Origin: a virus | Length of the DNA stretch: 64,000 bases | Virus record (IMG/VR): IMGVR_UViG_3300036851_000098 | Span: 15,867 to 79,866 of that record | Direction: 5' to 3' (one strand) | Shown: positions 29,410 through 52,931 of the stretch, one piece after another | How the letters are laid out: each line of letters opens with the position of its first letter | Position numbering within the stretch: the stretch's first letter is position 1 | The notes under the pieces: model-generated | Database searches by the model: none | Told to the model about the DNA's origin: nothing | The model's input: only the letters and a program-made list of their open reading frames with translations | Made by a program: the position numbers and the translations under genes

Positions 29410-32273
29410 TGCGCGTTACTGAAGAAGACTACTTGATGCATTACGGCATCAAGCGTAAGTCAGGTCGGTATCCTTGGGGATCTGGTCAGAATCCTCTACA
29501 ACGTTCAAAGACGTTCCTAGGAATAATCGAGCAACACAAGAAAATCGACAAAATGACTGAGTCCGAGATTGCTAGGGCATACTCGGATAATGATCACAAA
29601 CTCAGTGTCGCTGACATTAGAGCAATGAGGTCTATTGCTGGTGCAGAAGTCAAGATGGATCAGATTCGTACTGCCCAACGTCTAAGAGATAAGGGTATGG
29701 GCGCGTCTGCGATTGCAAGGCAGATGGACCTAAACGAGTCTACTGTCCGTTCGCTTCTGGAGCCAGGTAGGCAGGAGAAGTTGGACATTCTCATGAATAC
29801 CGCCGACATGCTCAAGCGGCAGGTCGAAGAAAAGGGTATGATTGACGTCGGTTCAAACGTCAATCTAGATCTTCCGATTGGCGACAATCCTGCCACCCGA
29901 ATCGGAATTAGTCCAGATAAGTTTGCTACTGCTCTTTCCATGCTCAAGGAAGAGGGCTACCAAGTTCATACTTTCAACGCCCCTCAGGTTGGAACTGGAG
30001 AGATGACCAAGTACAAGGTGCTGGTCAAGCCTGGGGTTACGCAGAAAGAAGCTTGGTCCAATCGTGACAACATTCGTCTGATCTCGGAAAAGACCGACGA
30101 TCGTGGCAGAAATTTCACCGATTTTGGTATCCAGCCTCCGTTGAATGTCTCCTCCAAGCGAGTGGGCATCAACTATAAGGAGGATGGTGGTAGTGACGCG
30201 GACGGCGTGATCTATGTTCGTCCTGGTGTCCCTGATATAACGCTTGGTAAATCTCGTTATGCTCAGGTTCGTATTGCGATTGATGGTTCACACTATCTCA
30301 AGGGTATGGCTGTCTACAAAGACAATCTACCCCCTGGCATGGATCTTCAGTTCAATACGAACAAGTCCAACACGGGCAATAAGCGTGACGCTATGAAACC
30401 CCTGAAGAGGGACCCTCAAACGGGTGAGGTCGATAAGGATAACCCATTTGGTGCCGTCATCAAGAAGGATGGCCAGATCCTAGATAAGAATGGGAAAGTC
30501 AAGTCGGCGATGAATCTCATCAACGAAGAGGGTGATTGGGATACATGGTCAAGAAACTTGTCCAGTCAGGTTCTCTCGAAGCAGAAGCCTGAACTAATTA
30601 AGACCCAATTGGATCTTACTCATGATCGGCGTAGAGCTGAGCTTGAAGAAATTCGCTCGCTCACTAACCCGCAGATCAAGAGAAAGCTTCTCGAAACTTT
30701 CGCTGAAGAGACTGATGCTGCAGCTGTGCATCTCAAAGCAGCAGCTATGCCTAATCAGGCTACTAAAGTCATTCTTCCGTCGAACAAAGTAAAGCCTAAT
30801 GAGATCTTTGCTCCTACTTTCAGGGATGGAGACAAGGTTGCTCTTGTGCGATTCCCTCATGCGGGAACGTTCGAGATTCCAGAACTGACTGTTAACAACA
30901 AGTCACGTGAAGCAAAGGCTCTAGTTGGACTGAACAAGGGTGGGACAGCAAGAGACGCTGTAGTCATTCACCCCAAGGTAGCAGAGAGACTATCTGGTGC
31001 TGACTTTGATGGCGACGCTGTCGTTGTCATTCCAAACAATCGTGGGCGGATTACCCATAAGCCCCCGTTGGAGGGACTTAAGGGATTTGATCCTCAAAGC
31101 GAATTTGCTCCCTATCATGGTATGAAGACCATTGATGGAGGAACGTACAACGCTACTACAAAGAAGATCGAATACCCTAAGGACAAGGACGGTAACGAAC
31201 GCAGTCCCAACAAGTCGAGAAAACAGCATGAGATGGGTAACGTTACCAACCTAATCTCTGACATGACCATTCGTGGTGCTAACAACGACGAGATAGCTCG
31301 TGCAGTGAAGCACTCTATGGTGGTTATCGATTCTGAGAAGCATGTTCTCGACTTCAAGGCTTCGGAGAGAATCAACGGAATCACAGCTCTTAAGAAGAAG
31401 TATCAAGGCGTGCACCCTAAGACAGGGCAAGCACGTGGTGCTTCTACGATCATTACTCGTGCTACTGCACAGACTCATCCTGTACAAAGGAAGGACGCAT
31501 CAGCTGGTCCTGGCAGAACTAGGATCTCTAGTGGTACGGTTGACAATCGTACAGGTAAGAAGCTGTATGAACCTACGGGTAAGCGTAAGCGTGACGGTAG
31601 TCTAGCTACGTTTAAGTCTCAGAAGTTGGCTGAGACAGATGATGCCTTTGAGTTGGTGTCAAAAGGTAGGGGCACTACGGAAGAACAGCTCTATGCTGAG
31701 CATTCTAATCGGCTTAAGGCTATGGCCAATGAGGTACGTAAAGAACTAATCCGTATCAAGCCCATCCCCTACTCGCCCTCAGCCAACAAGGTGTACAAGC
31801 ATGAAGTGGATTCGCTTACAGCGAAATTGCGTAAGGCTGAAAAGAACGCCCCCCTCGAACGGCAGGCCCAGGCTGTAGCCAGGCGGATCGTTGCGGATCG
31901 TAAACGCGCAAACCCAGGGATGGAGAAGGACGAGGAGCGGAAGATCAAAGGTCAGGCGTTGACCGAAGCTCGACGTAGAACAGGAGCGGGTAAAGTACGC
32001 CTAGGTTCTGATGAATCCCCCATTACTGATCGTGAGTGGGAAGCTATTCAGAATGGTGCGATCTCGAATCACATGTTGGATAACATCTTGAAGAACTCTA
32101 ACATAGACAAGATCCGTGAGCGCGCAACACCTAGAGAGAAGCCTGTGATGAGTAATGTCATGACAGCTAGGGCCAGGCAGATGATTGCGTCTGGGTACCC
32201 ATTGTCGGTCATTGCTGAGCAACTGGACATTCCTGTGTCCACCCTTAAGTCTGGGCTTGAGGATGGGGGGTGA
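29409..32273 (+). CDS. single-subunit two-barrel (YonO/QDE-1-like) RNA polymerase with N- and C-terminal HTH
   Basis: DG..Y...AQVRI...YLKGMAV; LVRFPH; LSGADFDGD (30996-31016); MGNVTN; VIDSEKH; HTH motifs SAIARQMDLNESTVR and SVIAEQLDIPVSTL. Confidence 0.8.
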   Translation: MRVTEEDYLMHYGIKRKSGRYPWGSGQNPLQRSKTFLGIIEQHKKIDKMTESEIARAYSDNDHKLSVADIRAMRSIAGAEVKMDQIRTAQRLRDKGMGASAIARQMDLNESTVRSLLEPGRQEKLDILMNTADMLKRQVEEKGMIDVGSNVNLDLPIGDNPATRIGISPDKFATALSMLKEEGYQVHTFNAPQVGTGEMTKYKVLVKPGVTQKEAWSNRDNIRLISEKTDDRGRNFTDFGIQPPLNVSSKRVGINYKEDGGSDADGVIYVRPGVPDITLGKSRYAQVRIAIDGSHYLKGMAVYKDNLPPGMDLQFNTNKSNTGNKRDAMKPLKRDPQTGEVDKDNPFGAVIKKDGQILDKNGKVKSAMNLINEEGDWDTWSRNLSSQVLSKQKPELIKTQLDLTHDRRRAELEEIRSLTNPQIKRKLLETFAEETDAAAVHLKAAAMPNQATKVILPSNKVKPNEIFAPTFRDGDKVALVRFPHAGTFEIPELTVNNKSREAKALVGLNKGGTARDAVVIHPKVAERLSGADFDGDAVVVIPNNRGRITHKPPLEGLKGFDPQSEFAPYHGMKTIDGGTYNATTKKIEYPKDKDGNERSPNKSRKQHEMGNVTNLISDMTIRGANNDEIARAVKHSMVVIDSEKHVLDFKASERINGITALKKKYQGVHPKTGQARGASTIITRATAQTHPVQRKDASAGPGRTRISSGTVDNRTGKKLYEPTGKRKRDGSLATFKSQKLAETDDAFELVSKGRGTTEEQLYAEHSNRLKAMANEVRKELIRIKPIPYSPSANKVYKHEVDSLTAKLRKAEKNAPLERQAQAVARRIVADRKRANPGMEKDEERKIKGQALTEARRRTGAGKVRLGSDESPITDREWEAIQNGAISNHMLDNILKNSNIDKIRERATPREKPVMSNVMTARARQMIASGYPLSVIAEQLDIPVSTLKSGLEDGG

Positions 32274-32277
32274 AACA

Positions 32278-32910: not shown

Positions 32911-32922
32911 AAGGAGGCACCG

Positions 32923-34347: not shown

Positions 34348-34581
34348 ATGCATCTTACAAAGGATGAACTCGCGCATCGGTTCCAGTTCCATCCGGCCGA
34401 CGCACAGAACAAGAAGGAAGCTCATGAGGAAGTTCGCAATGTGTTGCTCGAGGCTGCCGACAAGATTGTTGACCTTACGGGTGCTCAGTCACGTGAACAA
34501 TCGCTTGCGGTGACCCATCTCGAGGAAGCTATGTTCTGGGCAAACGCTGCCATTGCACGCGGCGATGGACCGAGGACGTGA
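34348..34581 (+). CDS. Acb2/Tad1-like helical-hairpin anti-defence sponge protein
   Basis: RF.FHP...HE.VR...SRE.SLA.T.LEEAMFWANAAIAR. Confidence 0.65.
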   Translation: MHLTKDELAHRFQFHPADAQNKKEAHEEVRNVLLEAADKIVDLTGAQSREQSLAVTHLEEAMFWANAAIARGDGPRT

Positions 34582-35024
34582 GCGCACTTCTCATGATTCC
34601 GCGACTTATTGTCGTGGACCGGGAGAACTTCACACTCGACATCTATCGATGGCGTACGTTCAAACAACGTTACGATACTCAACATCGATATATGGTCACC
34701 GTAGGCAAGGAAGGCAATGAGACTCCTCATGGTCTGTACTTTGTCGAGCGTAAGACACGAGAAGCAGACTGGCGTATTCCAGAAGACCCGGACTATTCCG
34801 AAGAAAGCTGGGGAAGCATCGTTCCACACGGCGCCCCAGGCAATCCGTTCAAAAGCGGATTCATATCTCTGGGTGGAGATGTATCGGGCATTGGCATTCA
34901 CGATACGACGTTTGAACCTCGAGTGGGTACAGCGTCTAGTCATGGGTGTATCCGGATGAGAACTGAGGATTTTCTGGAGATCTATGATAGGTGCAAGATC
35001 GGAACACCAGTCTATCTACACTAG
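34578..35024 (+). CDS. L,D-transpeptidase (YkuD domain)
   Basis: V.VG...ETP.G, W..P, P.NP, IGIH.T...G...SHGCIRM, GTPVY. Confidence 0.88.
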   Translation: MSALLMIPRLIVVDRENFTLDIYRWRTFKQRYDTQHRYMVTVGKEGNETPHGLYFVERKTREADWRIPEDPDYSEESWGSIVPHGAPGNPFKSGFISLGGDVSGIGIHDTTFEPRVGTASSHGCIRMRTEDFLEIYDRCKIGTPVYLH

Positions 35025-35066
35025 GAGAGTTGGCTAACAGGACTGTAGGGGACCTGGGAGGCAACA

Positions 35067-35387
35067 ATGTATTTCGTTGTACCACAGACGTGGGTTACTC
35101 CGGCGATAACCGCCGCGGCTCTTCATTTCGGGCCAATTGGCCAACCTGTGGAAGTTAAGTATCGGGCTCTCGATTGGGGGATAGGTACGATCGACAGACC
35201 GAACGTGATAATTGTGGATAAGCGACCAAGATGGGATTGGTCTAGAGTAAAAGCTCAATGCACGCTTGTTCATGAGTATGGACATTTGACAGGAAATAGA
35301 CACTCAGACAATCCGAAATCAGTAATGTATCCGGTTTACAGATACCGGGTTTGCAAACGATGGCTAATACGCCATGGGGTGCTGTAA
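35067..35387 (+). CDS. matrixin-like zinc metallopeptidase
   Basis: HEYGHLTG.RHS..P.SVMYP (metzincin Met-turn). Confidence 0.8.
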   Translation: MYFVVPQTWVTPAITAAALHFGPIGQPVEVKYRALDWGIGTIDRPNVIIVDKRPRWDWSRVKAQCTLVHEYGHLTGNRHSDNPKSVMYPVYRYRVCKRWLIRHGVL

Positions 35388-35403: not shown

Positions 35404-35784
35404 TTGACCAACGCACGGCCGAACACAAAGTTCTTGGACAATCTTGACGAGGCTACTCTTCGCCAAGTGTGTAGCAGGCTAGATGCGCTTGAACCTTATA
35501 TTGCGGAGCATCGAGATCTTGTCAAACGTCGCCGTGCGTTGGAGATTCGCCTGGGCAAAATTTCAAAGTCGGATCGAGTGCGACAACTTCTTGCTCATCA
35601 TCCTAATGGGCTTACACGAGCAGTGATAGGAGATAAACTTGACATAACAGTCGGACTGTCGGGAGTGTTGGGTGAACTTAAACGACAAGGGCATATCGAT
35701 CAGCCTGGGAAAGGACTCTATCGGCTCACTGACCTTGGCCATCAGGCCACGAGTTCAATGGTGGTTAACCAAAACGCAACCTAA
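35404..35784 (+). CDS. winged-helix DNA-binding protein
   Basis: AGGAG SD before TTG; coiled coil then HP.GLT...I...L......G.L.ELK.QG.I....G.Y.LT. Confidence 0.6.
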   Translation: MTNARPNTKFLDNLDEATLRQVCSRLDALEPYIAEHRDLVKRRRALEIRLGKISKSDRVRQLLAHHPNGLTRAVIGDKLDITVGLSGVLGELKRQGHIDQPGKGLYRLTDLGHQATSSMVVNQNAT

Positions 35785-36418
35785 TCGACAAGATCATGAA
35801 GATCTTGTAAGCGCGGTGATGATTCAGCTTTTAGAGGCTGAAGTAAGATTTACCGGTACTCCAGAAACTTGGCCAGCATATGCTTGGCCTAGAATCAAAG
35901 GCACTATTCTTGACGAAATTCGTAAAACTAAACCAAGAGGGTTTCGTCGACGGCGACACGATGATACACCTGTGATCGTGTCTATTAACGAATTCATTGG
36001 GGAAACCGATCAGACTCTAAGCGATACGATTCCTGATATAAAAGCGATCATCGATCATGATCCGGTCGCAGAACAGAAATTTGCTGATGCTATCTCCGCA
36101 CTTTCTGTTAACGAACGGGTTGTGGTTGAGTTAATGATTGACCAGGATCTGTCATCAGCCGATATAGCAAAAGTCCTTGGCGTAACTAATGGGCGAGTAA
36201 GTCAGATGGCGAAAGCTATTCGACATCAACTAGTAGAGAGTCTTGCGCACCCAATGCTACGCAAGGAGGCTCTTTGTTCTCTACGCTCTGAAAGCTTTCT
36301 CCGTGATCGAGTCCGGAGTGGTCACAGCGTAAGAGAGATAGCAGACGAACTAGGTGTAGCTCGAACCAGCGTTCGAGAATGGATGAGGCTATACCAAATT
36401 CAACCAGTCAATCGCTGA
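35672..36418 (+). CDS. sigma-70 family factor (FliA/WhiG-like) with extra C-terminal HTH
   Basis: EDLVS....LLEA..F; AYA.PRIKG.ILDEIR; L...ER.V.......L...DIA.VLGVT..RVSQ. Confidence 0.82.
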   Translation: MNLNDKGISISLGKDSIGSLTLAIRPRVQWWLTKTQPNRQDHEDLVSAVMIQLLEAEVRFTGTPETWPAYAWPRIKGTILDEIRKTKPRGFRRRRHDDTPVIVSINEFIGETDQTLSDTIPDIKAIIDHDPVAEQKFADAISALSVNERVVVELMIDQDLSSADIAKVLGVTNGRVSQMAKAIRHQLVESLAHPMLRKEALCSLRSESFLRDRVRSGHSVREIADELGVARTSVREWMRLYQIQPVNR

Positions 36419-37332: not shown

Positions 37333-38052
37333 ATGTCAAGATTTATCCTCGATACGAGGCTGAGTGAAGCTCACTACGTTCTTTGTACGGAAGCCATTCG
37401 TCGTGGCATCATCACGCCGAGCGATCTTAACGAAGGTCGCCGGACAATGGACGAACAGTGGGCATTCTATAACAATCAGCCCCCATTGGCTGCATATCCT
37501 CGTCCGACTGCCCCACACATCTGGGCAGGTAAGGCGAATCATGCAATTGATGCCAACTCCTGGAATGGCGCGGCGCGACGTCTGGCCAACTTCTACGAGA
37601 GTCAAGGCGTTGACGTCGTTTTCAACGTTCCGGGTGAGAATTGGCACTTCCAGCCTACATCTGAGTCGCAGCTTCTCAATGCTGCTAATCGGATTCGGGA
37701 TCGCCGCGATCTCCTAATTTCCAAAGTTGGAGAGACCGAGCCACGTATCAACTTCTTCAAGTTCCAGCTGCACTACATTCACGATCCGGATACTGGGAAG
37801 TCATATTTCCAGCCTGGTCAGAAGCGCCCTGACGAAGGCTACGGAGACAAGTTCACTCCGGAGCTTGAAACTTCAGTTAAGAAGTTCCAACGAGATCACG
37901 ATCTCAAGGCTGACGGCGTCATCGGGCCGATCACCGATCGTAAGATCGATGCCGCGTATACGCGCGCGAAGAACAACCGTACACTCAAGTCTGTTGAGCT
38001 GCATGCCAAGGAGCGTAAGGCTCGGGTCGAGGCTGGAAAGGCGGCGATGTGA
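37333..38052 (+). CDS. endolysin-like protein: M15-type peptidase plus peptidoglycan-binding domain
   Basis: R...EQ..., H..A.D, ENWHF; VKKFQRDH.L.ADGVIGP.T. Confidence 0.75.
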   Translation: MSRFILDTRLSEAHYVLCTEAIRRGIITPSDLNEGRRTMDEQWAFYNNQPPLAAYPRPTAPHIWAGKANHAIDANSWNGAARRLANFYESQGVDVVFNVPGENWHFQPTSESQLLNAANRIRDRRDLLISKVGETEPRINFFKFQLHYIHDPDTGKSYFQPGQKRPDEGYGDKFTPELETSVKKFQRDHDLKADGVIGPITDRKIDAAYTRAKNNRTLKSVELHAKERKARVEAGKAAM

Positions 38053-38844
38053 ATGACACTACCGAGTAGTCCGCCAATTTATCGGAGTTGGACGGAGCTA
38101 GTTGCACCGATTCGTTTTGGCGAAGGTCTGTCCAGCCATGGTTGGGAAACAGGTACCTGGCGTGTTTATGCATTGCAGACGGGCTTGAAGGCCGTTGGTC
38201 GTGACACTGTGCCAGATGGAATGTTTGGTGAGTATACCAAGAAGCAAGTGATCGGATTCCAGGCTAATAATGGGCTTACAGCAGATGGAATCGCTGGACA
38301 GCTAACACAACGTGCACTTGTTAAGAAGGCTGCAACGCGCTTGCGTGACATGTTTTACCCGCGCGTGCCTGAGGGCATGATGTTTGGTATTGCAATCAAG
38401 GAAACATCCGGTTTTGTCGGAGCGACCAACGACTTCGATCCGAGTCTGTCAGATCTGGGTTGCGATTGCGGTGTGATTCAGCGTCGGGTCAAAGGTCCGC
38501 CATATTCCATGGAAACTCTGTTGCTCGCGTTTGATGTTGCCCAGGCATTGATCTGGGGAGCGGTTGACGACGGCGGCGGCGATCCAGGAAAGATGAAGGG
38601 ATATTTGCCGCGTTACGATCGGCTTACTCGCGCACAGCCGACTCTTTCTGAGCTGACTAAGCGTAAAGCCGTGATCATCGCTCACAACGCACCGTTCATG
38701 TATGAGCAGTTCGTTGACCACGGGCGTTTGACGACTCCGAATGCGCTTGCGAAGTGGACACTCAAGCCTGGTGGCGGTCACTATACGCATGCCGAGTGGC
38801 TAGAAGTCTACACGAGCGAAGTTCTTTCATTCGTGACTGGGTAA
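38053..38844 (+). CDS. peptidoglycan-binding protein with putative lytic domain
   Basis: V.ALQ..L...DG.FG..T...V..FQ.NNGL.ADGIAG..T; lysozyme-like KETS...D.G..Q. Confidence 0.7.
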   Translation: MTLPSSPPIYRSWTELVAPIRFGEGLSSHGWETGTWRVYALQTGLKAVGRDTVPDGMFGEYTKKQVIGFQANNGLTADGIAGQLTQRALVKKAATRLRDMFYPRVPEGMMFGIAIKETSGFVGATNDFDPSLSDLGCDCGVIQRRVKGPPYSMETLLLAFDVAQALIWGAVDDGGGDPGKMKGYLPRYDRLTRAQPTLSELTKRKAVIIAHNAPFMYEQFVDHGRLTTPNALAKWTLKPGGGHYTHAEWLEVYTSEVLSFVTG

Positions 38845-39261: not shown

Positions 39262-39687
39262 ATGGAACAGAGCATTCTAAAGAGTACCAAGAAGTATGTG
39301 GGTCTTGATCCTGAAAACACAGCATTCGATCTTGACATCCTCACCCTTATTAACTCGGCGTTCTCCACCATCCACGATCTGGGTGTGGGTCCTGATAGTG
39401 GCTTCGCTATCGAAGACGAAGAAACGGTGTGGCAGGATTTTCTTGATGAGGACCCCGTGCAGCTTGGGCATATCAAAATCGTCGTCTGGACTCGGACACG
39501 GCTGGGATTTGATCCTCCTACTCAGCAATTCCTTATCGAGGCAATCAACAAGCAGCGTGAGGAAGCTGAGTGGCGACTCAACACGAACCGCGAAGCAGTC
39601 GCGTGGGTCGATCCTGATCCGGCTGATGTCGTAGATGAAGACGAATTGGTCGTCCTCGACGGCGGCGACGCGGAGGATTCACCATGA
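39262..39687 (+). CDS. head-to-tail connector/adaptor
   Basis: SIL.STKK..G......FD.DI...INSAF..I..LGVGP..GF.I; RL.FDPP; EWRL. Confidence 0.75.
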   Translation: MEQSILKSTKKYVGLDPENTAFDLDILTLINSAFSTIHDLGVGPDSGFAIEDEETVWQDFLDEDPVQLGHIKIVVWTRTRLGFDPPTQQFLIEAINKQREEAEWRLNTNREAVAWVDPDPADVVDEDELVVLDGGDAEDSP

Positions 39688-42512: not shown

Positions 42513-43858
42513 TGCCTGCGCCTCCGACACCCACTACCATTGGCGATGTTCTTTCAACAGTTAACTCAGCATCAGTGATTATTACAACCACTGATGCTGT
42601 AGCAGCTGGTGAATCGATTATCGTTGCGGCCATGAGAAAAACTAATGGTTGTGATTTGGCTCATGTTCAAGATTCTGGCGGAAATATTTATGAGATAGAA
42701 GGCACAACCACAACGGGTCTAGCGGGCGGAATTGCTGTTGCTACTGCTAAAACAGCATTACCTGTAGGATCGACAATTACAGTGACTTTCACTGTAACTG
42801 CTAATACGGATCCAAAGTATGCAGCAGCATATAAAACTTCGACAGCTGTTGTAATTGATCAAAGAGCACTAGCAACAGGCGCTGCTACAACTGCTTGGTC
42901 ATCGGGCGCTACTGGGACTACTAGCCATGCCAATGAGTTAGTATTCACAATGGCGGCAACTAATACATCACCTGTTTCTTCAACTCCTGATGGTTCTCAG
43001 ATTGAACTGTATGACAATTCAACTACCGGTGCTGCTTTTGTAGCCCAATACGAATTGATTAGTTCTATTGGTACGCCAAGTGGTTCCGGAGTTTGGTCTA
43101 CGTCTGCGACAAACTGGCTTGCTGTTTGTGTGACTTTACGTGACGCATCGACAGGTATTACCAGAGAAACAGTCGGTACGCCTACCGCCGTTACCACATT
43201 TGGCCAGGGTGGACAAGGATTGACCTCGACAATTACAACCACTGGAGCTATTCCATCTGGAGCTACAGCATTTCTTGTTGTTGGTAGTTCGGTTGTTGGC
43301 GCGGGTGTTCTTTCCGTTAAAGATAACGACGGTAATCTATGGCATAGAGTCGCCAATCAGACATCAGCAAATTCCGTTAATGCTTCAATTTTCGCTCGTT
43401 ATATGCGAGCTGGGTTGGCTTCTGGGAAGATTATTACAATTACGTATGCCAGCGGATCATCTAAGACAGCACAAGCGGTTATTGGCTATATGACTGGGCG
43501 TGCTTTAGTAGATGCGGTTGCTAGCGCTGGTGGAGGATCTGGAACAGCGTGGTCCACAGGAGCGAGTGGCGCGACGGTCTTGTCTGATGAGCAATCGGTT
43601 GCCGTTGCGAATGCTAGTTCGGCGACATCGAATTCAAACACAACTGGTTCGTCTCCAGCAATGACTGAGATGAATGACATTAGTGGTAACTCCCGAGCTA
43701 CGGTGCTTACCCGAGCAAGTTCGTCTATTGGCTCAGGTACTGCTGTTACTGCAGCAGGAACATGGGCTGCTGGGTCTACTTGGAACGCAGCGGTGGCAAC
43801 ATTTGCTGGCGTACTTGATGGTGTGGAGCCGTTCACGAACTTTAATGTGATTGGCTAA
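42512..43858 (+). CDS. beta-rich virion/fibre-associated protein with internal duplication
   Basis: Two similar halves (TITTT.A...G, V.D..GN.Y/W, AWS.GA.G.T...E). Confidence 0.7.
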   Translation: MPAPPTPTTIGDVLSTVNSASVIITTTDAVAAGESIIVAAMRKTNGCDLAHVQDSGGNIYEIEGTTTTGLAGGIAVATAKTALPVGSTITVTFTVTANTDPKYAAAYKTSTAVVIDQRALATGAATTAWSSGATGTTSHANELVFTMAATNTSPVSSTPDGSQIELYDNSTTGAAFVAQYELISSIGTPSGSGVWSTSATNWLAVCVTLRDASTGITRETVGTPTAVTTFGQGGQGLTSTITTTGAIPSGATAFLVVGSSVVGAGVLSVKDNDGNLWHRVANQTSANSVNASIFARYMRAGLASGKIITITYASGSSKTAQAVIGYMTGRALVDAVASAGGGSGTAWSTGASGATVLSDEQSVAVANASSATSNSNTTGSSPAMTEMNDISGNSRATVLTRASSSIGSGTAVTAAGTWAAGSTWNAAVATFAGVLDGVEPFTNFNVIG

Positions 43859-43905: not shown

Positions 43906-45114
43906 ATGGGTAGTAATCTTGTCGTAGTGGCTATCCCCGATGAGAACGATCGTGTATGGAAGGTCTCGAGCGAAAAGATTCCTCATCTCACCGTCCTCTT
44001 CCTGGGTGATGTGGACGAGGTTTCAAATCTCGATCAGATCGTCCAGTTCGTGGAGCATGCGGCCGAGCAGACGCTGCGGCGGTTCTATCTTCCGGTGGAC
44101 CGTCGCGGTGAGCTTGGCGCCGACAAAGCGGACGTTCTCTTTTTCAAGAAGGGACGTTACGACTTCAAGGCGATTCGAGACTTCCGAACGGCGCTTCTTC
44201 AGGACAGCAACATCAGGAAAGCGTACGATTCTACAACACAATTCGAAACGCCGCCTGCGGTTGGTTCTCCTGGGCAGTCCTGGATCCCTCATCTGACTCT
44301 CGGCTATCCGACGTCGCCAGCCAAGCCTGAGAAGGGAGATCAGTATCCCGGATTCTACGACGTCTGCTTCCACAAGATCGCTGTGTGGGTGGGAGATTAC
44401 GAGGGCTCCGAGTTTCTGTTGAAGGATCAGTGGGAAGAGATGGAGCTAGCTGAGGTTGCGCCAATGGACGTAGCTATGAGCGATCTGGTAAGTCGGAATC
44501 AGGCTCGTATTGCTCTCGGCCTTAAGGAGATCGAAGCCGAGCTCGAACACTATGGCGTGAAGGGTATGCGTTGGGGACAGCGTAGGTCGGAGCGTCAGCT
44601 TGCTGTGGCTCAGAAGCGAAGGAATGACGCTAAGACTCTGGAAGAAGCTGCTGCTCGTAGAGGCGAAGGGGCTACTCGTGGAATCCTTGAGCGACTCGCT
44701 GCTCAAGAGCGAAGCGGAGCGCTTAAGCTTGAAGCCAAAGCTAGGTCAAGACAAGAGAAATTGGCTGAGAAAACGGCTACAGTAGAGCCTACCGCTAAGT
44801 CTGTTGTTCCTCCTGGGTCGAAGCGTAAGACTAAAATCGATGTTGAAGGTGGAGAAAATCATCCGGCTACGGAAGACGCGCTTAACGTAGCTAAGGCTCA
44901 AGTTAAATTGCAAAAGAGTGGTGCTGCTGCTCTCTCTAATAAAGAGCTTCGTGAAGTTGCTAATCGGCTGCAACTAGAGCAACAAGTCAAGCAGCTGTCT
45001 ACGTCTGGTGGACGTAAGTTTGTAACTAACCTGTTGAGAGAACAGGGCAAGCAACAGACTCAAAGTCTTATCAACGAGCAGATCAGAGACTTGCGGCGTC
45101 GCCAGGCAGCATAA
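43906..45114 (+). CDS. 2H phosphoesterase fused to HYGVKGMRWG head-associated domain
   Basis: Two HxT motifs (PHLTVLFLG, PHLTLGY); ELEHYGVKGMRWG; LSN.EL.....RLQLEQ. Confidence 0.78.
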   Translation: MGSNLVVVAIPDENDRVWKVSSEKIPHLTVLFLGDVDEVSNLDQIVQFVEHAAEQTLRRFYLPVDRRGELGADKADVLFFKKGRYDFKAIRDFRTALLQDSNIRKAYDSTTQFETPPAVGSPGQSWIPHLTLGYPTSPAKPEKGDQYPGFYDVCFHKIAVWVGDYEGSEFLLKDQWEEMELAEVAPMDVAMSDLVSRNQARIALGLKEIEAELEHYGVKGMRWGQRRSERQLAVAQKRRNDAKTLEEAAARRGEGATRGILERLAAQERSGALKLEAKARSRQEKLAEKTATVEPTAKSVVPPGSKRKTKIDVEGGENHPATEDALNVAKAQVKLQKSGAAALSNKELREVANRLQLEQQVKQLSTSGGRKFVTNLLREQGKQQTQSLINEQIRDLRRRQAA

Positions 45115-45128: not shown

Positions 45129-46874
45129 GTGGCACTGTCCAACAAAGCAGTCCCGGTGTATTACGGGCAGTTCCGCGATGCGGTGATGCGGGGCGACATT
45201 CCGGTCAACCGGGAAATCTCACTAGAGATGAACCGGATCGATTCGCTCATCGCAAACCCCAACATCTATTACGACGATCAGGCAGTGGAGGGCTTTCTCC
45301 GCTTTTGCGAGGGCGAGATGACCCTTACAGATGGAAACGATCTCCACCTCCTATTCACATTCAAGCTATGGGCCGAACAGATCTTCGGCTGGTATTACTT
45401 CGTTGACCGGTCGATTTACGTCCCCTCTGATGGTAATCACGGGGGTCATTACGAGACTAGGACGATCAAAATCCGGTTGATCAAGAAGTTCTACCTTATC
45501 GTAGCCCGAGGTGCGGCCAAATCGATGTTCGCTGCATTAATCCAGGCATACTTCCTAACCGTCGATACGGCGACTACTCATCAGATCACAGCGGCCCCGA
45601 CCATGAAGCAGGCAGAAGAGGTCATGTCCCCCTTCCGTACTGCCATCACCAGAGCTAGAGGTCCGTTGTTCAAGTTCCTTACCGAGGGATCTCTGCAGAA
45701 TACTACCGGAGATCGGATGCTTCGGCAGAAGTTGGCAGCAACTAAGAAGGGAGTCGAGAACTTCCTTACTGGATCACTGCTTGAAGTCCGTCCAATGACC
45801 ATTAATAAGCTTCAGGGTCTTCGAACCAAGATCGCTTCAATCGATGAGTGGCTTTCTGGTGACCTTCGAGAGGATGTAATTGGCGCAGTTGAGCAGGGTG
45901 CTTCTAAGCTTGATGACTATTTGATCATTGCTATCTCTTCTGAGGGCACTGTTCGAAATGGTTCCGGTGACACAATCAAAATGGAACTTGCTGACATCCT
46001 CAAGGGTGAGTATGCAGCTCCTCACGTTTCAATCTGGCACTACAAACTGGACGAATTGGAGGAAGTTGGCGATCCGTCTACGTGGTTGAAGGCGAATCCT
46101 AATCTTGGGCAAACAGTTACATACGAGACTTATCAGCTCGATGTCGAAAGAGCTGAAAAAGCTCCAGCTGCTCGTAACGATATTCTTGCCAAGCGTTTTG
46201 GTATCCCGATGGAGGGTTACACATACTTCTTCACGTATGAAGAGACTCTTCCGCATCGTGTTCGTGAGTTCTGGCAGCTTCCGTGTTCTCTGGGTATGGA
46301 TGCTTCACAGGGTGACGACTTCTGGGCGTTTACTTTCTTGTTCCCGCTAGGCGGAAGCCGATTTGGTGTAAAAACTCGCAGCTACATCACCGAGCGGACG
46401 CTCATGATGTTGCAGCCTGCCATGCGCCAGAAGTATGAAGAGTTCATCCAAGAGGGAAGTCTTCATGTAATGCCGGGAACCGTTCTCGAATGGGAACAGA
46501 TCTATGATGACATGGATGCGTTTATCATCAAAGCAGAGTACGACGTTCGATGCTTTGGTTACGACCCGTACAATGCTAAAGAGTTCGTTACTCGATGGGA
46601 AGCTGAAAATGGCCCATTCGGTATTGAGAAGGTGATTCAGGGTGCGAAGACTGAGTCCGTGCCGTTAGGAGAGTTGAAAAAGCTTTCAGAAGATCGTTTT
46701 CTCATATTTGACCAGTCTCTGATGTCATTCGCCATGGGTAATGCTATTACTCTGGAAGATACAAATGGTAATCGCAAGCTGCTTAAGAAGCGCCAAGAGG
46801 AGAAAATCGACAACGTGGCGGCCATGATGGATGCTTACATCGCGTTCAAGGCAAACACAGAGGCATTCGAATGA
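45129..46874 (+). CDS. terL: terminase large subunit
   Basis: ARGAAKS Walker A, IDEW Walker B, G.D.SQGDDF, YDPYNA, KIDNVAA.MDA. Confidence 0.93.
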   Translation: MALSNKAVPVYYGQFRDAVMRGDIPVNREISLEMNRIDSLIANPNIYYDDQAVEGFLRFCEGEMTLTDGNDLHLLFTFKLWAEQIFGWYYFVDRSIYVPSDGNHGGHYETRTIKIRLIKKFYLIVARGAAKSMFAALIQAYFLTVDTATTHQITAAPTMKQAEEVMSPFRTAITRARGPLFKFLTEGSLQNTTGDRMLRQKLAATKKGVENFLTGSLLEVRPMTINKLQGLRTKIASIDEWLSGDLREDVIGAVEQGASKLDDYLIIAISSEGTVRNGSGDTIKMELADILKGEYAAPHVSIWHYKLDELEEVGDPSTWLKANPNLGQTVTYETYQLDVERAEKAPAARNDILAKRFGIPMEGYTYFFTYEETLPHRVREFWQLPCSLGMDASQGDDFWAFTFLFPLGGSRFGVKTRSYITERTLMMLQPAMRQKYEEFIQEGSLHVMPGTVLEWEQIYDDMDAFIIKAEYDVRCFGYDPYNAKEFVTRWEAENGPFGIEKVIQGAKTESVPLGELKKLSEDRFLIFDQSLMSFAMGNAITLEDTNGNRKLLKKRQEEKIDNVAAMMDAYIAFKANTEAFE

Positions 46875-47110
46875 ACAATACTTACAGAGCACACATTTTC
46901 AAGCAATGTCAAGTCGGGCTACGTGAGGAAGTAAAGCTTAGATTGTTTACTACATTAGGTGATCCAATTGACCTATGTGGTAACGATGAAGAAGATCCCG
47001 ATATTCCCATCCCGGAGGATCTCTCTGAGCATGTGAATTCGGAAACTCCACATCCTATCTACGATGACGGGCCGTCTCTTGTCCTCCTTTATGAGAATGC
47101 GAAGGTTTGA
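46871..47110 (+). CDS. hypothetical virion-associated protein
   Basis: Coupled ORF; H....TPHPIYD. Confidence 0.6.
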   Translation: MNNTYRAHIFKQCQVGLREEVKLRLFTTLGDPIDLCGNDEEDPDIPIPEDLSEHVNSETPHPIYDDGPSLVLLYENAKV

Positions 47111-47112
47111 TC

Positions 47113-47766
47113 ATGTCGCTCCAAACCCGTCTAAGTGACCTGATCACTGCGGTCGGCACTGATTACAAGCAGCTTCGAACCTGGCTTACCGGATCTGCTT
47201 CTGGAGATCTTACTGGTCTTACAACCACGGACAAGACTAGCGTTGTGGCGGCCATTAACGAGGTTGATGCGCAGTCCAGTGCTCCTCCGGATGCCAGTAC
47301 TACGGTCAAGGGGCTCATCGAGATTGCTACATTGGCTGAGGTAAGTACAGGCACGGATTCTGATCGTGCAGTTACGCCTGCGGGTGTTAAGCAGGAGACT
47401 GATGCCGTAAGAGACGCAATTCTAGGTGTCGGAGTTCCTGCCGCATTGGACACTTTGGACGAGTTGGCTGCCGCTTTGGGCGACGATGCCAACTTCGCTT
47501 CGTCAGTTACTACCTCTCTGGCTGGAAAGCAGCCGCTTGACACAGATTTGACAGCCATTGCAGCGCTAGTATCGGCTGCAGACAAGTTCCCGTATGCTAC
47601 GGGAGCAGGTACCTGGACGTTGGGTGACGTGTCGGCGTTTGCCCGAACGTTGCTCGACGATGCTGACGCAGCGACTACTCGTGGGACGCTTTCGGTTTAC
47701 AGCCAAGTCGAGCTTGGTAACCCTGATACCGATCTTGCAGCGCTCTACGCAACCGCTAAGGCGTAA
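47113..47766 (+). CDS. fibre-like structural protein
   Basis: L.TTDKTS.VAAINE; ASTTVKG..EIAT; PAALDTL.ELAAALG.D.NF. Confidence 0.75.
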   Translation: MSLQTRLSDLITAVGTDYKQLRTWLTGSASGDLTGLTTTDKTSVVAAINEVDAQSSAPPDASTTVKGLIEIATLAEVSTGTDSDRAVTPAGVKQETDAVRDAILGVGVPAALDTLDELAAALGDDANFASSVTTSLAGKQPLDTDLTAIAALVSAADKFPYATGAGTWTLGDVSAFARTLLDDADAATTRGTLSVYSQVELGNPDTDLAALYATAKA

Positions 47767-47768
47767 TC

Positions 47769-48353
47769 ATGGCCTCGCTGGCCACTCGCATCAGTGAGCT
47801 AATCACAGCTATTGGTGCGGATATTAAAGCGTTGCAAACCAGGGATACAAGTTACAACGCATCGACATCGGCGCAATCTGGAATCAGCGGCGATACATAT
47901 TTGGCGGGGTCTAGCATTGCGATTCCACAAGGTAAGATAAAAGCTGGAACGATCTACCGATGCAAGTTCAACGTTGTTAAGACTGCAGCCGGAACTGGCG
48001 CGCCGGTTATATCTGTTCGAGTCGGAACAGCGGCATCAACGGCTGATACCGCTCGGGCCACGTTGACATTTGCTGCGCAGACTGCGGTAGTCGATGAGGG
48101 TATATTTGAGGTAGATTGTGTATTCCGTGCTGCTGGGGCTTCGGCGGTGATTCAGGCTATAGGTCGACTGATTCATCGGTTGGCTACTACGGGTTTGAAT
48201 GTTACAGCGATCAATACCATTGTATTGAATACAGGAGCTTCGTTTGATATTACCGGATCTAATCTGAAGATTGATCTTTCGGTTAACGCACCGAATCCGT
48301 CTTCATGGACGGTTAGCCTTGTCTCTGCAGAGTTGATCAACTTGACACCATAA
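47769..48353 (+). CDS. fibre-associated structural protein
   Basis: N-terminus SL.TRIS.LITA.G.D.K.L shared with the upstream gene. Confidence 0.7.
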   Translation: MASLATRISELITAIGADIKALQTRDTSYNASTSAQSGISGDTYLAGSSIAIPQGKIKAGTIYRCKFNVVKTAAGTGAPVISVRVGTAASTADTARATLTFAAQTAVVDEGIFEVDCVFRAAGASAVIQAIGRLIHRLATTGLNVTAINTIVLNTGASFDITGSNLKIDLSVNAPNPSSWTVSLVSAELINLTP

Positions 48354-48368: not shown

Positions 48369-48803
48369 ATGAGGGAAAAACCCTTCGCGTCTCCTGGAGA
48401 GGCGCTTGCTCATATTTCGGAGACACCTTGGAGCGCGTATTCCAAGTCGGATTACACTCTTGAGCAATGGCATGCTGCGTGTTTGATCCATATTCATGAT
48501 GGAGAGGTCACGTCCAAGAGCGAGTGTAAGTTACCGGTCAAGACGCCTGATGGGGTTCTGAATCGCAACGGTGTACATGCTGCCGCAGCAGCTCTAGCAG
48601 GAGCTCGAGGCGGGCTTAAGAATGTGTCTAAGGAACAAAGAGAGAAAGCAGCAGCTGCTCTACGGAGGTACTACTCTCAGCTGGATGAGGATCCTCCAGA
48701 ATCGCTGGCTGAGCATGGCGCGGTTAAGGGCAATATTCTTAAACAGTCTTTTGCATCGCCTAAGGAGGCGTTAGAACACTATGGCGTTAAGGTCACGCGC
48801 TGA
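48369..48803 (+). CDS. head-associated protein (KLP..PDG.LN.NGV.AA domain) with decayed C-terminal tag
   Basis: FASP.EAL.H occurs twice; ends EHYGVKVTR*. Confidence 0.65.
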   Translation: MREKPFASPGEALAHISETPWSAYSKSDYTLEQWHAACLIHIHDGEVTSKSECKLPVKTPDGVLNRNGVHAAAAALAGARGGLKNVSKEQREKAAAALRRYYSQLDEDPPESLAEHGAVKGNILKQSFASPKEALEHYGVKVTR

Positions 48804-48863: not shown

Positions 48864-50210
48864 ATGGCAATTACAGATCGCCTGAAACACGCTTGGAATG
48901 CGTTCACAGATAGTGAAAGCGCAAACAATCGTCCGTTCGAGATGGCGGGCATGGGCGGGTCATATTTTGGCGTTCGACCCGATCGTAACCGACCCCGAAT
49001 CTCGAATGAGCGGTCGATCATCGCCTCGATCTACACTCGTATCGGCATCGATGTGGCTGGTGTACCTATGCGCCATGTTCGAAAGGATGAGCAGAATCGA
49101 TATTTGGAAGACATTGATAGTGGTCTAGACAACTGCCTGACGGTTGAGGCCAATGTTGATCAGGCTGCTCGGGCGTTCCGGCAAGACATCGCAATGACCA
49201 TGATGGACGAAGGTGTTGTAGCTATCGTTCCTGTGGATACGACGATATCTCCTGAGGAATCGGGCGGGTACGACATCAAAACCATGCGAGTTGGTCGAGT
49301 CGTGGGCTGGTTCCCAAGACATGTTCGTGTTTCGGTATATAACGACGATCCGAACATTATTGGCGGAGGATCTCGTCAAGAGATTACGCTGTCCAAGAAG
49401 GTCGTAGCAATTATCGAGAATCCACTATATTCCGTGATGAACGAGCCGAATTCGACGCTTCAGCGTCTGATCACGAAACTCAATCTATTGGATGTTGTGG
49501 ATCAGGAGTCATCTTCGGGTAAGTTGGACATGATAATCCAGCTTCCGTATGTAATTAAGTCGGAAGCACGTCGACAGCAGGCCGAGCAGCGACGAAAGGA
49601 TATTGAGTTCCAGCTCAAGGGAAGCCAGTACGGAATCGCTTACACAGACGGTACTGAGAAGGTTGTTCAGCTTAATCGTGCTGTGGAAAACAATCTTTTG
49701 CCTCAGATCGAATCACTCAAGACGCAGCTTTACAGCGAGTTGGGTCTTACTCCTGAGGTCATGAACGGCACGGCTGATGAAAAGGTCATGCTGAATTACT
49801 ACGCTCGGACAATCGAGCCTATGCTGGATGCGATCGTTGAAGCCATGATTCGAGTCTTTCTCACAAAGACAGCTCGAACTCAGGGTCAGTCGATCATGTA
49901 TTTCCGAGATCCGTTCAAGTTCGTGCCGATCGGTGGCGAAGGCGGGATTGCTGACATCGCCGACAAGTTCTCTCGTAATGAGATTGTATCGTCTAACGAG
50001 ATTCGACAGGCTATCGGAATGAAGCCTCGACCCGAAGCTAAGGCTGATGCGTTGATCAACTCCAACATGCCAGTACCCGACACAGGAGTTACGATCGATT
50101 CAACAGCTGAGGAAGTAATCGAAGATGTAGAAGATCCGGAAGTCGTTCAGTTGACTGAAGGATTGGCCACTTCAGCTGCTGAAATCGACGAAGCATTGGC
50201 GGGTGGGTAA
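48864..50210 (+). CDS. portal protein
   Basis: 448 aa between terminase and capsid; GKLD.IIQLPY, YGIAY.DGTE, NEIR..IG. Confidence 0.88.
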   Translation: MAITDRLKHAWNAFTDSESANNRPFEMAGMGGSYFGVRPDRNRPRISNERSIIASIYTRIGIDVAGVPMRHVRKDEQNRYLEDIDSGLDNCLTVEANVDQAARAFRQDIAMTMMDEGVVAIVPVDTTISPEESGGYDIKTMRVGRVVGWFPRHVRVSVYNDDPNIIGGGSRQEITLSKKVVAIIENPLYSVMNEPNSTLQRLITKLNLLDVVDQESSSGKLDMIIQLPYVIKSEARRQQAEQRRKDIEFQLKGSQYGIAYTDGTEKVVQLNRAVENNLLPQIESLKTQLYSELGLTPEVMNGTADEKVMLNYYARTIEPMLDAIVEAMIRVFLTKTARTQGQSIMYFRDPFKFVPIGGEGGIADIADKFSRNEIVSSNEIRQAIGMKPRPEAKADALINSNMPVPDTGVTIDSTAEEVIEDVEDPEVVQLTEGLATSAAEIDEALAGG

Positions 50211-50803
50211 TGCTACGACCACCCAATGATCTCGAGCTGGATCAGCTGATGCATCGTTACGACCCGGTCAAGGCTCATGAGTACTATGAGAGGACCAAGA
50301 AGTTAAAGGGTCGAAAGCGAGGACAACGAAAGGTCGGAGCGGTTACTCGTCCTGGTCAACAGCCGGTTGGGTTTGCTCGATCCAATGCACGACGACAAGA
50401 GGAAGCCAAGCCTAGGCAACGTCGAGAATTGGCGCAGCGTATCAAACTCCTAGAAGGCAAGCTTAAGGAGCTTGAAGAGCGGATCCGAGAGAAGGAACGG
50501 GAGGCACGCCAAGAGAATCGAAAGGCGAAGGCTAAGAAGGAGCGTGCGGCTAAAGAGCGTGATAAGCCGAAAACCGCTGCCGAAAAAGCAGAGGAAGCTC
50601 GAGAAGCTAAGAAGTATCGCGACAAGAATCAGCAAAAGCTGAAGAACAAGGCGAAAGCAGCCAGCTCAAAGTCTGGCGGAAGCAGTTCTTCCTCTAGTAA
50701 GAAGTCGGAATCGAAGAAACGTTCGATCTCTGATCTCAAAGCTCTTGCCACCAAGGTTAAGGGGCAGATTGCAGTCGCCAAACAAAAGCTAGCTGCGCTC
50801 TAA
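50210..50803 (+). CDS. basic head-associated protein
   Basis: LMH.YDPVKAHEYYERTKKLKGR, then Lys/Arg coiled coil. Confidence 0.7.
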   Translation: MLRPPNDLELDQLMHRYDPVKAHEYYERTKKLKGRKRGQRKVGAVTRPGQQPVGFARSNARRQEEAKPRQRRELAQRIKLLEGKLKELEERIREKEREARQENRKAKAKKERAAKERDKPKTAAEKAEEAREAKKYRDKNQQKLKNKAKAASSKSGGSSSSSSKKSESKKRSISDLKALATKVKGQIAVAKQKLAAL

Positions 50804-50840
50804 GAGCGCCGGAGATCAAAAGACGAAAGGAACAGTCAAA

Positions 50841-52931
50841 ATGGGAGCAAAGTCCCGCCGACTGGACTTCGGTGACTCTTCGCCGGAGAACAGCCTGATG
50901 CATTCGGCCATTGCGGCTAAGAAGCCTGACTTCAGTGGTTGGGCCTCTAAGTACGGCCTCAAGTGCACAGACGGAAGGACGATCCTGAACGGTGCTTTCC
51001 AGCACCAGGATGGCGATCAGCTGCCGCTGGTGTGGCAGCACGGGCACGATTCGCCCGAGAACGTCCTGGGTCACGTGGTTCTCGAGCACAAGGCCCAGGG
51101 GCCTTACTGCTATGGGTACTTCAACCAGACGACCCAGGGGAAGAACGCAAAGACCCTAGTAGAGCACGAGGATGTCTCGTCGCTTTCCATTTTCGCCAAT
51201 GCGCTGGTCGAGAAGGCCAAGCAGGTCTCACACGGCATGATCCGGGAGGTCTCGCTTGTGCTGGCGGGTGCCAACCCTGGCGCCTTCATCGACAATATCG
51301 AGATCGCGCATTCCGACGGAGAAGTCACGACGGTCGCCGACGAGGCGATCATCTACACCGGTCTCGAACTCGAGCACGCCGAAGGCGACGCTGCCGAGAC
51401 CGAGACGACTGAGACGGATGAAGGCACGTCGAATGACGACGAGTCTCGCTCTGTCCAGGACGTCTTCGATTCGATGTCTGAGGAGCAGCAGGAAGTCGTC
51501 CACTACATGGTGGGTGCGGCACTTCAGAGCGTCGAGAGCAAAGACAGCAGCACCGACGAAGAGACCGGTTCCTCCGACGAGGAGGGCATCACCCACGAGG
51601 ACAAGGACGAAAACGAGATGAGCGGACGAAACGTCTTCGAGAGCGCCACGGGCGGGGAGGCCACCAAGGGCAAGCCCCGTATGACGCTTTCGCACGACGC
51701 GATGCAGGGCATCGCTGCCGACGCGGTCAAGCGCGGCTCGCTGAAGGAGGCGTTCCAGGACTACGCCTTCAAGCACGGGATCGAGGACATCGATCTGCTG
51801 TTCCCGGATGCGCGGGCCATCACCGAGACCCCGGAGTTCGACAGCCGTCGGACCGAGTGGGTCGCCGGGGTCCTCGGGGCGGTGCGTAAGAGCCCCTTCT
51901 CGAGGATCAAGTCCCTGACAGCCGACATTACCCACGCCGAGGCGCGGGCAAAGGGCTACGTCAAGGGAAACCTGAAGAAGGAAGAGTTCTTCGGGTTGAT
52001 GCGACGCATCACCACCCCGAGCACGGTCTACAAGAAGCAGAAGCTCGACCGTGACGACATCATCGACATCACGGACTTCGATGTCGTGCTGTGGCTTAAG
52101 GCCGAGATGCGTCTCATGCTGGACGAGGAGGTTGCGCGTGCCATCCTGATCGGGGACGGCCGTGACGTCGACGACGAGGACAAGGTCCGCGACCCCGCTG
52201 GGGCGACGGACGGCGCGGGCATCCGCTCCATCCTCAACGACGACGACCTCTACGCGGCGACGATCACGATCGACGTCAGCGGGGACCTGAAGGACACGGA
52301 CCTCACGGACAAGATCCTCGAGTCCATGCGCTTCTACAAGGGCTCCGGTTCGCCGACGTTCTACACGACGCAGTACGTCATGACGCAGATGTTGCTGGCC
52401 CGAGATGGCGACAACCGTCGCCTGTACCGCACGGCGAGCGACTTGGCGGCCGAGATCGGTGTCAGTGCCATCGTGACCGTTGACCCCATGGAGGACGAGC
52501 CCGACCTGGTCGGCATTATCGTCAATCTCCGAGACTACACGGTCGGTGCGGACCGTGGTGGCGAGGTGTCGTTCTTCGACGACTTCGACATCGATTACAA
52601 CCAGTACAAGTACTTGACCGAGACGCGCGCTTCCGGAGCTCTCACCAAGATCCGATCGGCACTGGTCATCAAGCAGGCCGCCGAGGGTGCGACCAAGGTC
52701 ACCCCGGCCGAGCCGACGTTCGATGCGGAGACCTCGGAGATCACGATCACCGACACGACTGGCGTCACGTACCGTCGCAGCGACACCAACGCCGCCGTGA
52801 CCAACGCGGGCTCGCCGTACTCCGTCGACGAGGGCGTGGACCTCACCATCTACGCAGTCGCCAACTCGGGCTACTTCTTCGACAACAACGTCGAGGACGA
52901 GTGGACCTTCCGCGGCACGGCGGGCGCGTAG
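50841..52931 (+). CDS. prohead protease-scaffold-major capsid fusion protein
   Basis: DFSGWA..., PLVWQH.H....VLG, LSI.A, IREVSLVLAGANPGA; acidic linker; capsid body (SPFSRIK, FDIDYNQYKYL.ETR.SGAL); C-terminal Ig-like domain. Confidence 0.92.
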   Translation: MGAKSRRLDFGDSSPENSLMHSAIAAKKPDFSGWASKYGLKCTDGRTILNGAFQHQDGDQLPLVWQHGHDSPENVLGHVVLEHKAQGPYCYGYFNQTTQGKNAKTLVEHEDVSSLSIFANALVEKAKQVSHGMIREVSLVLAGANPGAFIDNIEIAHSDGEVTTVADEAIIYTGLELEHAEGDAAETETTETDEGTSNDDESRSVQDVFDSMSEEQQEVVHYMVGAALQSVESKDSSTDEETGSSDEEGITHEDKDENEMSGRNVFESATGGEATKGKPRMTLSHDAMQGIAADAVKRGSLKEAFQDYAFKHGIEDIDLLFPDARAITETPEFDSRRTEWVAGVLGAVRKSPFSRIKSLTADITHAEARAKGYVKGNLKKEEFFGLMRRITTPSTVYKKQKLDRDDIIDITDFDVVLWLKAEMRLMLDEEVARAILIGDGRDVDDEDKVRDPAGATDGAGIRSILNDDDLYAATITIDVSGDLKDTDLTDKILESMRFYKGSGSPTFYTTQYVMTQMLLARDGDNRRLYRTASDLAAEIGVSAIVTVDPMEDEPDLVGIIVNLRDYTVGADRGGEVSFFDDFDIDYNQYKYLTETRASGALTKIRSALVIKQAAEGATKVTPAEPTFDAETSEITITDTTGVTYRRSDTNAAVTNAGSPYSVDEGVDLTIYAVANSGYFFDNNVEDEWTFRGTAGA

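Follow-up and report, generated by a model that had tools for sequence, protein, structure and literature searches.

The window analysed here is 64,000 nucleotides long and covers bases 15867-79866 of the IMG/VR virus record IMGVR_UViG_3300036851_000098, whose full length is 79.9 kb. It stems from an uncultured, actinophage-like virus and has every one of its genes on the + strand. Its relatives are Streptomyces BI, Arthrobacter AM/AU and Gordonia DJ phages, Rhodococcus phage ReqiPepy6, Lactococcus 1706-like phages and gut phages, the same group that has been termed a "supercluster" (bioRxiv 10.1101/842583), and the union of an S78 prohead serine protease, an acidic spacer and an HK97-fold capsid protein in a single chain is a trait of this lineage. 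The subject is a short peptide, referred to as the tag, in which an L-x-H site is followed by a block of the type YG(V/I)K...WG, and which the initial annotation read as a capsid-loading and protease-processing code that extends to a candidate RNA polymerase (RNAP). That reading is supported in part, in that the tag is real, widespread and carried by proteins of the head module, with a variant on the polymerase, and in that its invariant [L/I]-x-H matches a conserved, His-specific pattern in the removable spacer of the protease-capsid fusion, but the residue that follows the His differs between the two kinds of site. The genes and features concerned are:

29409-32273, + strand: candidate single-chain two-barrel RNAP, YonO/QDE-1-like, 954 amino acids (aa), with helix-turn-helix (HTH) modules (phrog_4291, E = 0; GADFDGD encoded at 30996-31022); it opens the relevant gene order
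29430-29486, + strand: variant tag YLMH-YGIKRKSGRYPWGSG, RNAP residues 8-26 (partial match to DUF7211, 16.3 bits)
43906-45114, + strand: 402-aa protein directly upstream of the terminase gene, with a 2H-phosphoesterase-like domain at the N-terminus, a tag inside the chain and a C-terminal part that is helical and basic
44527-44592, + strand: canonical DUF7211 tag EIEAELEH-YGVKGMRWGQRRSE in the 402-aa protein, with ELEH-YGVKGMRWG at 44539-44577
45129-46874, + strand: terminase large subunit (TerL; Pfam TerL_nuclease and TerL_ATPase, phrog_9)
48369-48803, + strand: 144-aa open reading frame (ORF), orf144, with the leader FASPGEALAH (H15) and a partial DUF7211 match (14.1 bits)
48699-48737, + strand: decayed tag in orf144, ESLAEHGAVKGN, which reads PESLAE-HGAVKGN
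48756-48800, + strand: truncated tag in orf144, EALEH-YGVKVTR* (H137), in which YGVKVTR forms the last seven residues and the tag is cut off past HYGVK
48864-50210, + strand: portal protein (phrog_12), N-terminus DRLKH-AWNAF (48876-48905)
50210-50803, + strand: K/E-rich 197-aa protein in the scaffold position between the portal and capsid genes, leader ...DQLMH-RYDPVKAHEYY (H15; phrog_12541)
50841-52931, + strand: protease-capsid fusion, 696 aa, with SLMH (H21), EIAH (H157), ELEH (H179), GITH (H252), TLSH (H285) and AFKH-GIED (H312)
50922-51266, + strand: prohead serine protease domain, fusion residues 28-142 (Peptidase_S78; phrog_3270, phrog_3244), a confident domain of the AlphaFold2 (AF2) model
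51267-51776, + strand: acidic, scaffold-like spacer, residues 143-312, with [LIVF]-x-H at H157, H179, H221, H252, H285 and H312
51777-52928, + strand: predicted mature major capsid protein G313-A696, HK97 fold and C-terminal beta domain

The motif strings listed in the initial annotation are all present, in frame and at the positions given for them, in + strand genes. Six-frame translation shows three occurrences of the core HYG[VIL]K, each in a real + strand gene, against 0.03 expected from composition, and 200 shuffles gave a mean of 0.065 with none reaching three, so that chance is ruled out as the source of the tag. The peptide corresponds to DUF7211 (PF23847), a Pfam model of 25 positions with a gathering cut-off of 27 bits and no assigned function, and a search of the whole 79.9-kb genome with this model returned the same three places only, at 47.8, 16.3 and 14.1 bits. 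The cut-off is passed by the copy in the 402-aa protein alone (43.6 bits over residues 208-229; 47.8 in the genome search) and failed by the RNAP N-terminus and the orf144 C-terminus, both of which align with profile positions 5-14 only. These two sub-threshold copies have L-x-H-Y-G-[VI]-K, to which the RNAP copy adds W-G. The claim that one tag is common to the RNAP, a 2H enzyme and head proteins thus applies in full to the 2H protein, but the RNAP has a half match, and orf144, counted before as a third copy, has one decayed and one truncated tag. No paper containing "DUF7211", a name for the tag or its motif strings was found in the literature, and the peptide is catalogued solely as a domain of unknown function.

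The 402-aa protein has the two H-x-T/S motifs of the 2H family, PHLTV (H27, 43981-43995) and PHLTL (H129, 44287-44301), and it scores below the Pfam cut-offs (2_5_RNA_ligase2, 23.7 vs 27; LigT_PEase, 22.6 vs 23.3). Its architecture, a 2H domain plus tag, equals that of ReqiPepy6 gp013. In a 482-aa homologue from a close relative (L012:3350-4798, 77% identical), the orf144 domain forms the first 110 residues and is followed by a full tag (PESLAH-HGVKGMRWG), a membrane helix and a HEMGH metallopeptidase-like domain, and in another (L068:265-1464) it is followed by two tags. The decayed tag of orf144 occupies the position of the full tag in the L012 homologue. The window copy is a truncated remnant of the longer tagged protein of relatives and keeps three L-x-H sites. 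A frameshift or hidden continuation of its truncated tag was rejected, as no GMKWG occurs in any frame, and so was a DNA-level duplication of the FASP..EAL.H leader, for which just a 14-nt repeat was found. The N-terminal domain of orf144 had no Pfam or PHROG match, and the protein atlas gave solely unnamed viral clusters.

The RNAP family to which the 954-aa protein belongs has been described as a putative RNAP (bioRxiv 10.1101/842583). GADFDGD (residues 530-536), which contains the DxDGD metal-binding loop, is invariant in 41 homologues, and the AF2 model (predicted local distance difference test score 73.6) matches QDE-1 (E 7e-7) and, from Thermus phages, P74-26 gp62 and the P32 gp64 RNAP, with further fold matches to RDR2 and to the largest subunits of RNA polymerases II and IV. 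On the modelled fold, the protein is a candidate for a two-barrel, single-chain polymerase with HTH modules. Two further genes lie close to it. A 127-aa ORF (32185-32568) starts ~90 nt before the RNAP gene stops, although the part of it that is conserved probably begins further in (MLTTVDNPFDPW...), and represents a small gene closely linked to the polymerase gene. A sigma-70-family factor (35672-36418) with regions 2 and 4 and an extra HTH is also encoded, and because it stands beside the phage's own RNAP candidate, the phage may use the host polymerase as well as its own.

The N-terminal variant of the RNAP, the half match L-x-H-Y-G-I-K ... W-G, is a low-confidence flexible tail in the AF2 model. 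It may be asked whether the polymerase is a virion protein at all, since the conserved HYG...RYPWGSG could serve the enzyme itself by contacting DNA, the HTH modules or a partner and be only partly DUF7211-like, with the polymerase as an early product of the end of the genome that is first to enter. The small DUF7211 match, just 16.3 bits over 10 positions, agrees with this, as do the continuation of the motif into the conserved QRSKTFLD helix of the polymerase family, the presence of a sigma-70-type factor and the position of the gene, which is the last at the right end in isolated relatives and is compatible with early expression. However, L-x-H-Y-G-[IVT]-[KL] has the same form and the same N-terminal position as the tags of the head module and is kept from phages of Actinobacteria to those of Lactococcus; YL(A/M)H-YGI(L/K)RKSGRYPWGSG is retained in ~113 of the 120 best RNAP homologues, and the homologue in phage 1706, orf75, starts with SLQH-YGTKRHSGRYPWGSG. 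The probability of a chance match in one protein, estimated from composition, is ~1e-4. The phage 1706 record (EU081845) moreover gives a plain "structural protein" for orf6, 7, 11, 12, 17, 20, 21, 71 and 75, and words predicted functions as "putative"; the labels of orf75, the RNAP homologue, and of orf7, which has two tags, are the depositors' annotation, untraced to data. A polymerase that stays out of the virion is accordingly considered unlikely.

The second line of evidence comes from the protease-capsid fusion. The Peptidase_S78 cut-off of 21 bits is exceeded (23.3 bits, E 8.1e-5) when residues 27-157 are scanned alone, and the full 696-aa chain as query gave no Peptidase_S78 hit; H67, H109, H131 and S116 of the domain are invariant among 34-78 homologues. 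In the AF2 model of the fusion, built with 34 sequences, residues 143-203 and 231-280 are disordered, helices span 205-232 and 285-311, and the HK97 fold runs from ~330. Foldseek matched the capsid part with probability 1.00 to capsids of a gene transfer agent and of Gordonia and Mycobacterium phages, to the HK97 prohead and to encapsulins, with E down to 9e-10. Solved structures gave no match by sequence and, with a profile, just a weak capsid hit (9sz9, E 1e-3), so that no mature N-terminus is known from experiment. No paper on the processing of protease-capsid fusions was found in the literature; an Arthrobacter phage paper reports the fusion and contains no proteomics.

The 15 His residues of the fusion all lie within residues 1-365, and 13 of them have L/I/V/M/F at position -2, compared with 33% in the proteome (binomial P = 3e-5). 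Four of them are well conserved among 78 homologues: H157 in 78/78, H312 in 75/78, H285 in 71/78 and H179 in 62/78. In the spacers of these 78 homologous fusions a hydrophobic residue of this set precedes the His at -2 in 520 of 608 cases (85.5%), while shuffled spacers gave 21.7 +/- 1.7% and 0 of 2000 reached the observed value, a figure that overstates independence given that the fusions are related. Two controls are unaffected by this relatedness. Where His is found in at most 25% of the sequences of a column (independent gains), 78 of 102 still have the hydrophobic residue, and the bias is specific to His, with Tyr at 43% and all other residue types at or below 29%. Chance as the source of the pattern is ruled out by the shuffles and the residue-type control. 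In the mature capsid part, where His makes up 0.8% of residues, 21% are preceded by a hydrophobic residue at -2, so that there is no bias. H312 (AFKH|GIEDIDLLFPD) lies where the last spacer helix ends, a little ahead of the N-arm of the HK97 fold; the other spacer sites fall in predicted disorder or at helix ends.

The His residues of the spacer need not be a cleavage code, as they could be a structural or chemical feature of the scaffold, such as metal or pH sensing beside hydrophobic anchors, which resembles the beginning of the tag by accident. The spacer is indeed acidic and His-rich (4.5-4.7% of residues), H221 and H285 lie in predicted helices, and the -2 bias is seen also at the protease domain's own His. 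Yet the bias persists in predicted disorder and in lineage-specific insertions, the near-invariant H312 falls exactly on a domain boundary, and the residues after the His look like a protease subsite pattern, with a small residue (A/G/S) at +1 in 55% of sites and Asp the most frequent at +2 (32%). Moreover, the residues on the P side, (E/A)-L-(E/A)-H, are common to tags and spacer sites. A purely structural role for these His residues is therefore regarded as very improbable, and the initial idea of a His-specific protease is supported as far as the patterns of tag and spacer match.

The 197-aa protein and the fusion had also been listed as carriers of the tag, and both have its L-x-H part, but the YG..WG block is absent. 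In the 197-aa family, a hydrophobic-x-H stands directly before the invariant stretch YDP[VI]KA.EYY..R.LKGR in 14 of the 16 homologues listed from related loci, and also in Bing gp13 and ReqiPepy6 gp023. A further leader of this type, which the initial annotation did not include, is found in the portal protein: of its 45 homologues listed, the majority keep L-[KR]-H-AWNAF.

The distribution of the full tag among relatives follows the head module. ReqiPepy6 carries it at the head of seven consecutive genes between TerL and portal (gp015-021), and its RNAP half-matches; Streptomyces phage Bing carries it at the head of gp06 and gp08-11, and Lactococcus phage 1706 has two tags in orf7, before TerL. 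In related viral-contig loci with TerL and portal genes, the gene preceding TerL is tagged in most cases where one was found, as are most genes of the variable gap between TerL and portal. The corresponding gap here (47107-48353) encodes two untagged paralogous proteins, whereas in relatives it holds genes of tagged, putative cargo; both paralogues begin with SLxTR(L/I)S(D/E)LITA(V/I)G, which resembles the N-terminal domains of tail fibres at the left end of ReqiPepy6. Among 90 tags, 60 are N-terminal and 30 internal, and their logo consists of an acidic leader followed by [L 84%/I/F/V]-x-H-[F/Y/H]-G-[V/I]-K-G-M-[K/R]-W-G-V-R-[K/R]. All 76 tagged ORFs scanned (the 2H protein of the window and 75 from related loci) passed the DUF7211 cut-off. 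Most have no other domain; those that do include a 2H phosphoesterase in nine (2_5_RNA_ligase2, 9/76, best E 8e-9), a GNAT acetyltransferase in four, an M90-like peptidase and a papain-fold glutamine-deamidase toxin, and a membrane helix follows the tag in many.

Of the 1.84 billion cluster representatives in the library, at least 39,139 match a profile of the tag at E <= 1e-3. The top-scoring proteins among them have 3-5 tags each, located between domains with a median spacing of 206 residues, and His is present in 463 of 463 tags, as is L/I/F/V/M at -2; these tags had been anchored on G..G.xWG alone. Three of the library proteins (P0121, P0122 and P0132), of 760-1569 aa, have 4-5 DUF7211 tags, one every ~200 residues, with DDFLEH-YGVKGMKWGVRK repeated, and look like polyprotein-like strings of domains without assignment.

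Proteins with several tags raise the question of whether the tag is concerned with processing only. The [L/I/V]-x-H would then be protease sites and the tag a polyprotein junction, with YG-KGMKWG-VRK acting after cleavage rather than as a loading signal, for example through contacts with DNA, with the host membrane or with the channel of the portal, and the proteins would enter the head by other contacts or not at all. The 3-5 junction-like tags ~200 aa apart fit this, and so do the basic nature of the conserved block, its location downstream of the His and the membrane helix that often comes after it. It is difficult, however, to see a mere junction in the 60 of 90 tags that are N-terminal, in single-domain proteins with 5-20 leader residues to remove, and tagged genes are restricted to the head module. 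A role limited to processing is judged improbable.

The remaining genes of this part of the window, all of which precede, separate or follow those described above, are:

after the RNAP gene, + strand: lysis and regulatory genes, comprising the sigma-70-type factor, an HNH endonuclease and two peptidoglycan-binding-domain proteins
39262-43858, + strand: a connector protein and two fibre-like proteins
between TerL and orf144, + strand: three small untagged genes
after the protease-capsid fusion gene, + strand: major tail protein

In the lysis region, 34578-35387 encodes a small HExxH protein that is matrixin-like and another protein whose YkuD L,D-transpeptidase domain scores 72.8 bits, and the two peptidoglycan-binding-domain proteins (37333-38844) adjoin these genes. 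One fibre protein, of 942 aa (39684-42512), combines the N-terminal domain of a major tropism determinant (Mtd_N) with collagen repeats in five stretches, and its C-terminal part holds four repeats that are nearly identical to one another (SVWRSG.GAPSGALG.IGDWYLD.ANGDVYEKTGSSTYTLR).

A mechanism can be proposed in which the S78 protease would cut after the His of [L/I/V]-x-H sites. Such cuts would break up the spacer into fragments 20-35 residues long and release the mature capsid protein, with G313 as its first residue. The tag, in the form of an acidic leader, [L/I]-x-H and (Y/F/H)-G-V-K-G-M-K-W-G-V-R-K, would give the same site, with the conserved basic block behind it, to proteins whose genes surround TerL and portal, in this phage the 2H protein; the RNAP has a variant of it. 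Tagged proteins would enter the procapsid by means of the tag and be cut there, which would release the 2H domain (residues 1-215) and remove 11 residues from the RNAP, and the cargo would leave with the DNA, such that the host would receive preformed enzymes. What the analysis shows is the tag and where it occurs, the statistics of the sites, the folds and the boundaries of the domains, that at H312 included; cleavage after His, loading by means of the tag and delivery to the host are inferred from these.

Several considerations weigh against this mechanism. The P1' residue is Y/F/H in tags and A/G/S in spacer sites, and because of this difference the tags may not be cut. The conserved basic block, being downstream of the His, would stay on the product. 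The bias at the protease domain's own His (63% hydrophobic at -2) may partly reflect beta-strand patterning. The conserved L-x-H at the portal N-terminus may be structural, which cautions against taking every L-x-H for a cut site. That tag, RNAP and fusion occur together, in near-identical phage sets, was rejected as functional evidence: it says little on function because all three follow one lineage, and shared descent may account for their travelling together. Lastly, the literature yielded neither a proteomic N-terminus nor an assay of cleavage or of packaging. Taken together, that tagged proteins are loaded into the head and trimmed is, from sequence, plausible but unproven, with the chances about evenly balanced.

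A broader version, which is more tentative and perhaps somewhat unlikely, extends a protease-gated cargo system to the whole lineage, among siphophages that infect Gram-positive bacteria. Every capsid subunit would bring its own S78 domain into the procapsid, where DUF7211 would dock as a substrate or pseudo-substrate through its [L/I]-x-H, and cleavage after the His would free a varying set of enzymes (2H, GNAT, deamidase toxins), membrane-helix proteins and the preformed two-barrel RNAP, to be ejected with the DNA. If this were true, transcription and counter-defence would begin before any phage gene is expressed. T4 Acb1 destroys cyclic-nucleotide immune signals, and it may be speculated that a 2H enzyme delivered with the DNA could do the same or repair RNA ends. 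If loading by the tag is true, a 20-residue peptide present in at least 39,000 protein clusters would mark the head-carried proteins of a very large number of phages from soil, gut and dairy, with a compact RNA polymerase and probably anti-defence enzymes among those proteins. There would also be a new prohead-protease specificity, for cleavage after His, and a simple handle with which to load foreign proteins into phage capsids.

Several known systems provide points of comparison. The fusion resembles the gp4-type protease and delta-domain system of HK97 in its S78 domain, in the HK97 fold of its capsid part and in the need to remove a scaffold-like part at the N-terminus, but here protease, spacer and capsid form one chain and the spacer has a repeated His site pattern. 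The RNAP candidate shares the two-barrel fold and DxDGD loop of YonO, QDE-1 and P23-45 gp64. The virion RNAPs N4 vRNAP and gp66 of crAss-like phage phi14:2 are far larger than the 954-aa candidate, which carries HTH modules at its termini and a variant of the tag at its N-terminus. Encapsulins, which are among the fold matches of the capsid, use cargo-loading peptides that are likewise short and flexible and direct enzymes into an HK97-fold shell, as the tag would; they differ in being mostly C-terminal and uncleaved, and bear no sequence relation to the tag.

The closest parallel is with T4, which loads IPI-III and Alt by an N-terminal capsid-targeting sequence that its prohead protease, gp21, removes by cutting at (L/I)-x-E. 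In this protease clan a hydrophobic residue is recognised at P3, as in the (L/I)-x-E of gp21 and the (V/L/I)-x-A|S of herpesvirus assemblin, and the principle of a targeting peptide combined with a prohead protease is already known from T4 and phiKZ-like phages. In both T4 and the present phages a short common peptide, here known from sequence alone, is shared by otherwise unrelated enzymes and internal proteins whose genes lie with those of the head, the site, a proposed one here, has a hydrophobic P3 and the protease is of the same clan, and the cargo, putative in the present phages, includes host-directed enzymes. On the other hand, P1 would be His rather than the Glu of T4, and the conserved block lies beyond the site and would be retained by the product, whereas the T4 targeting sequence is removed. 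Tags are furthermore found between domains, up to five per protein, and the protease is fused to the capsid protein. The His site, tags that persist and repeat in polyproteins, a capsid-fused protease and a tagged two-barrel RNAP would in combination be a new form of this known principle.

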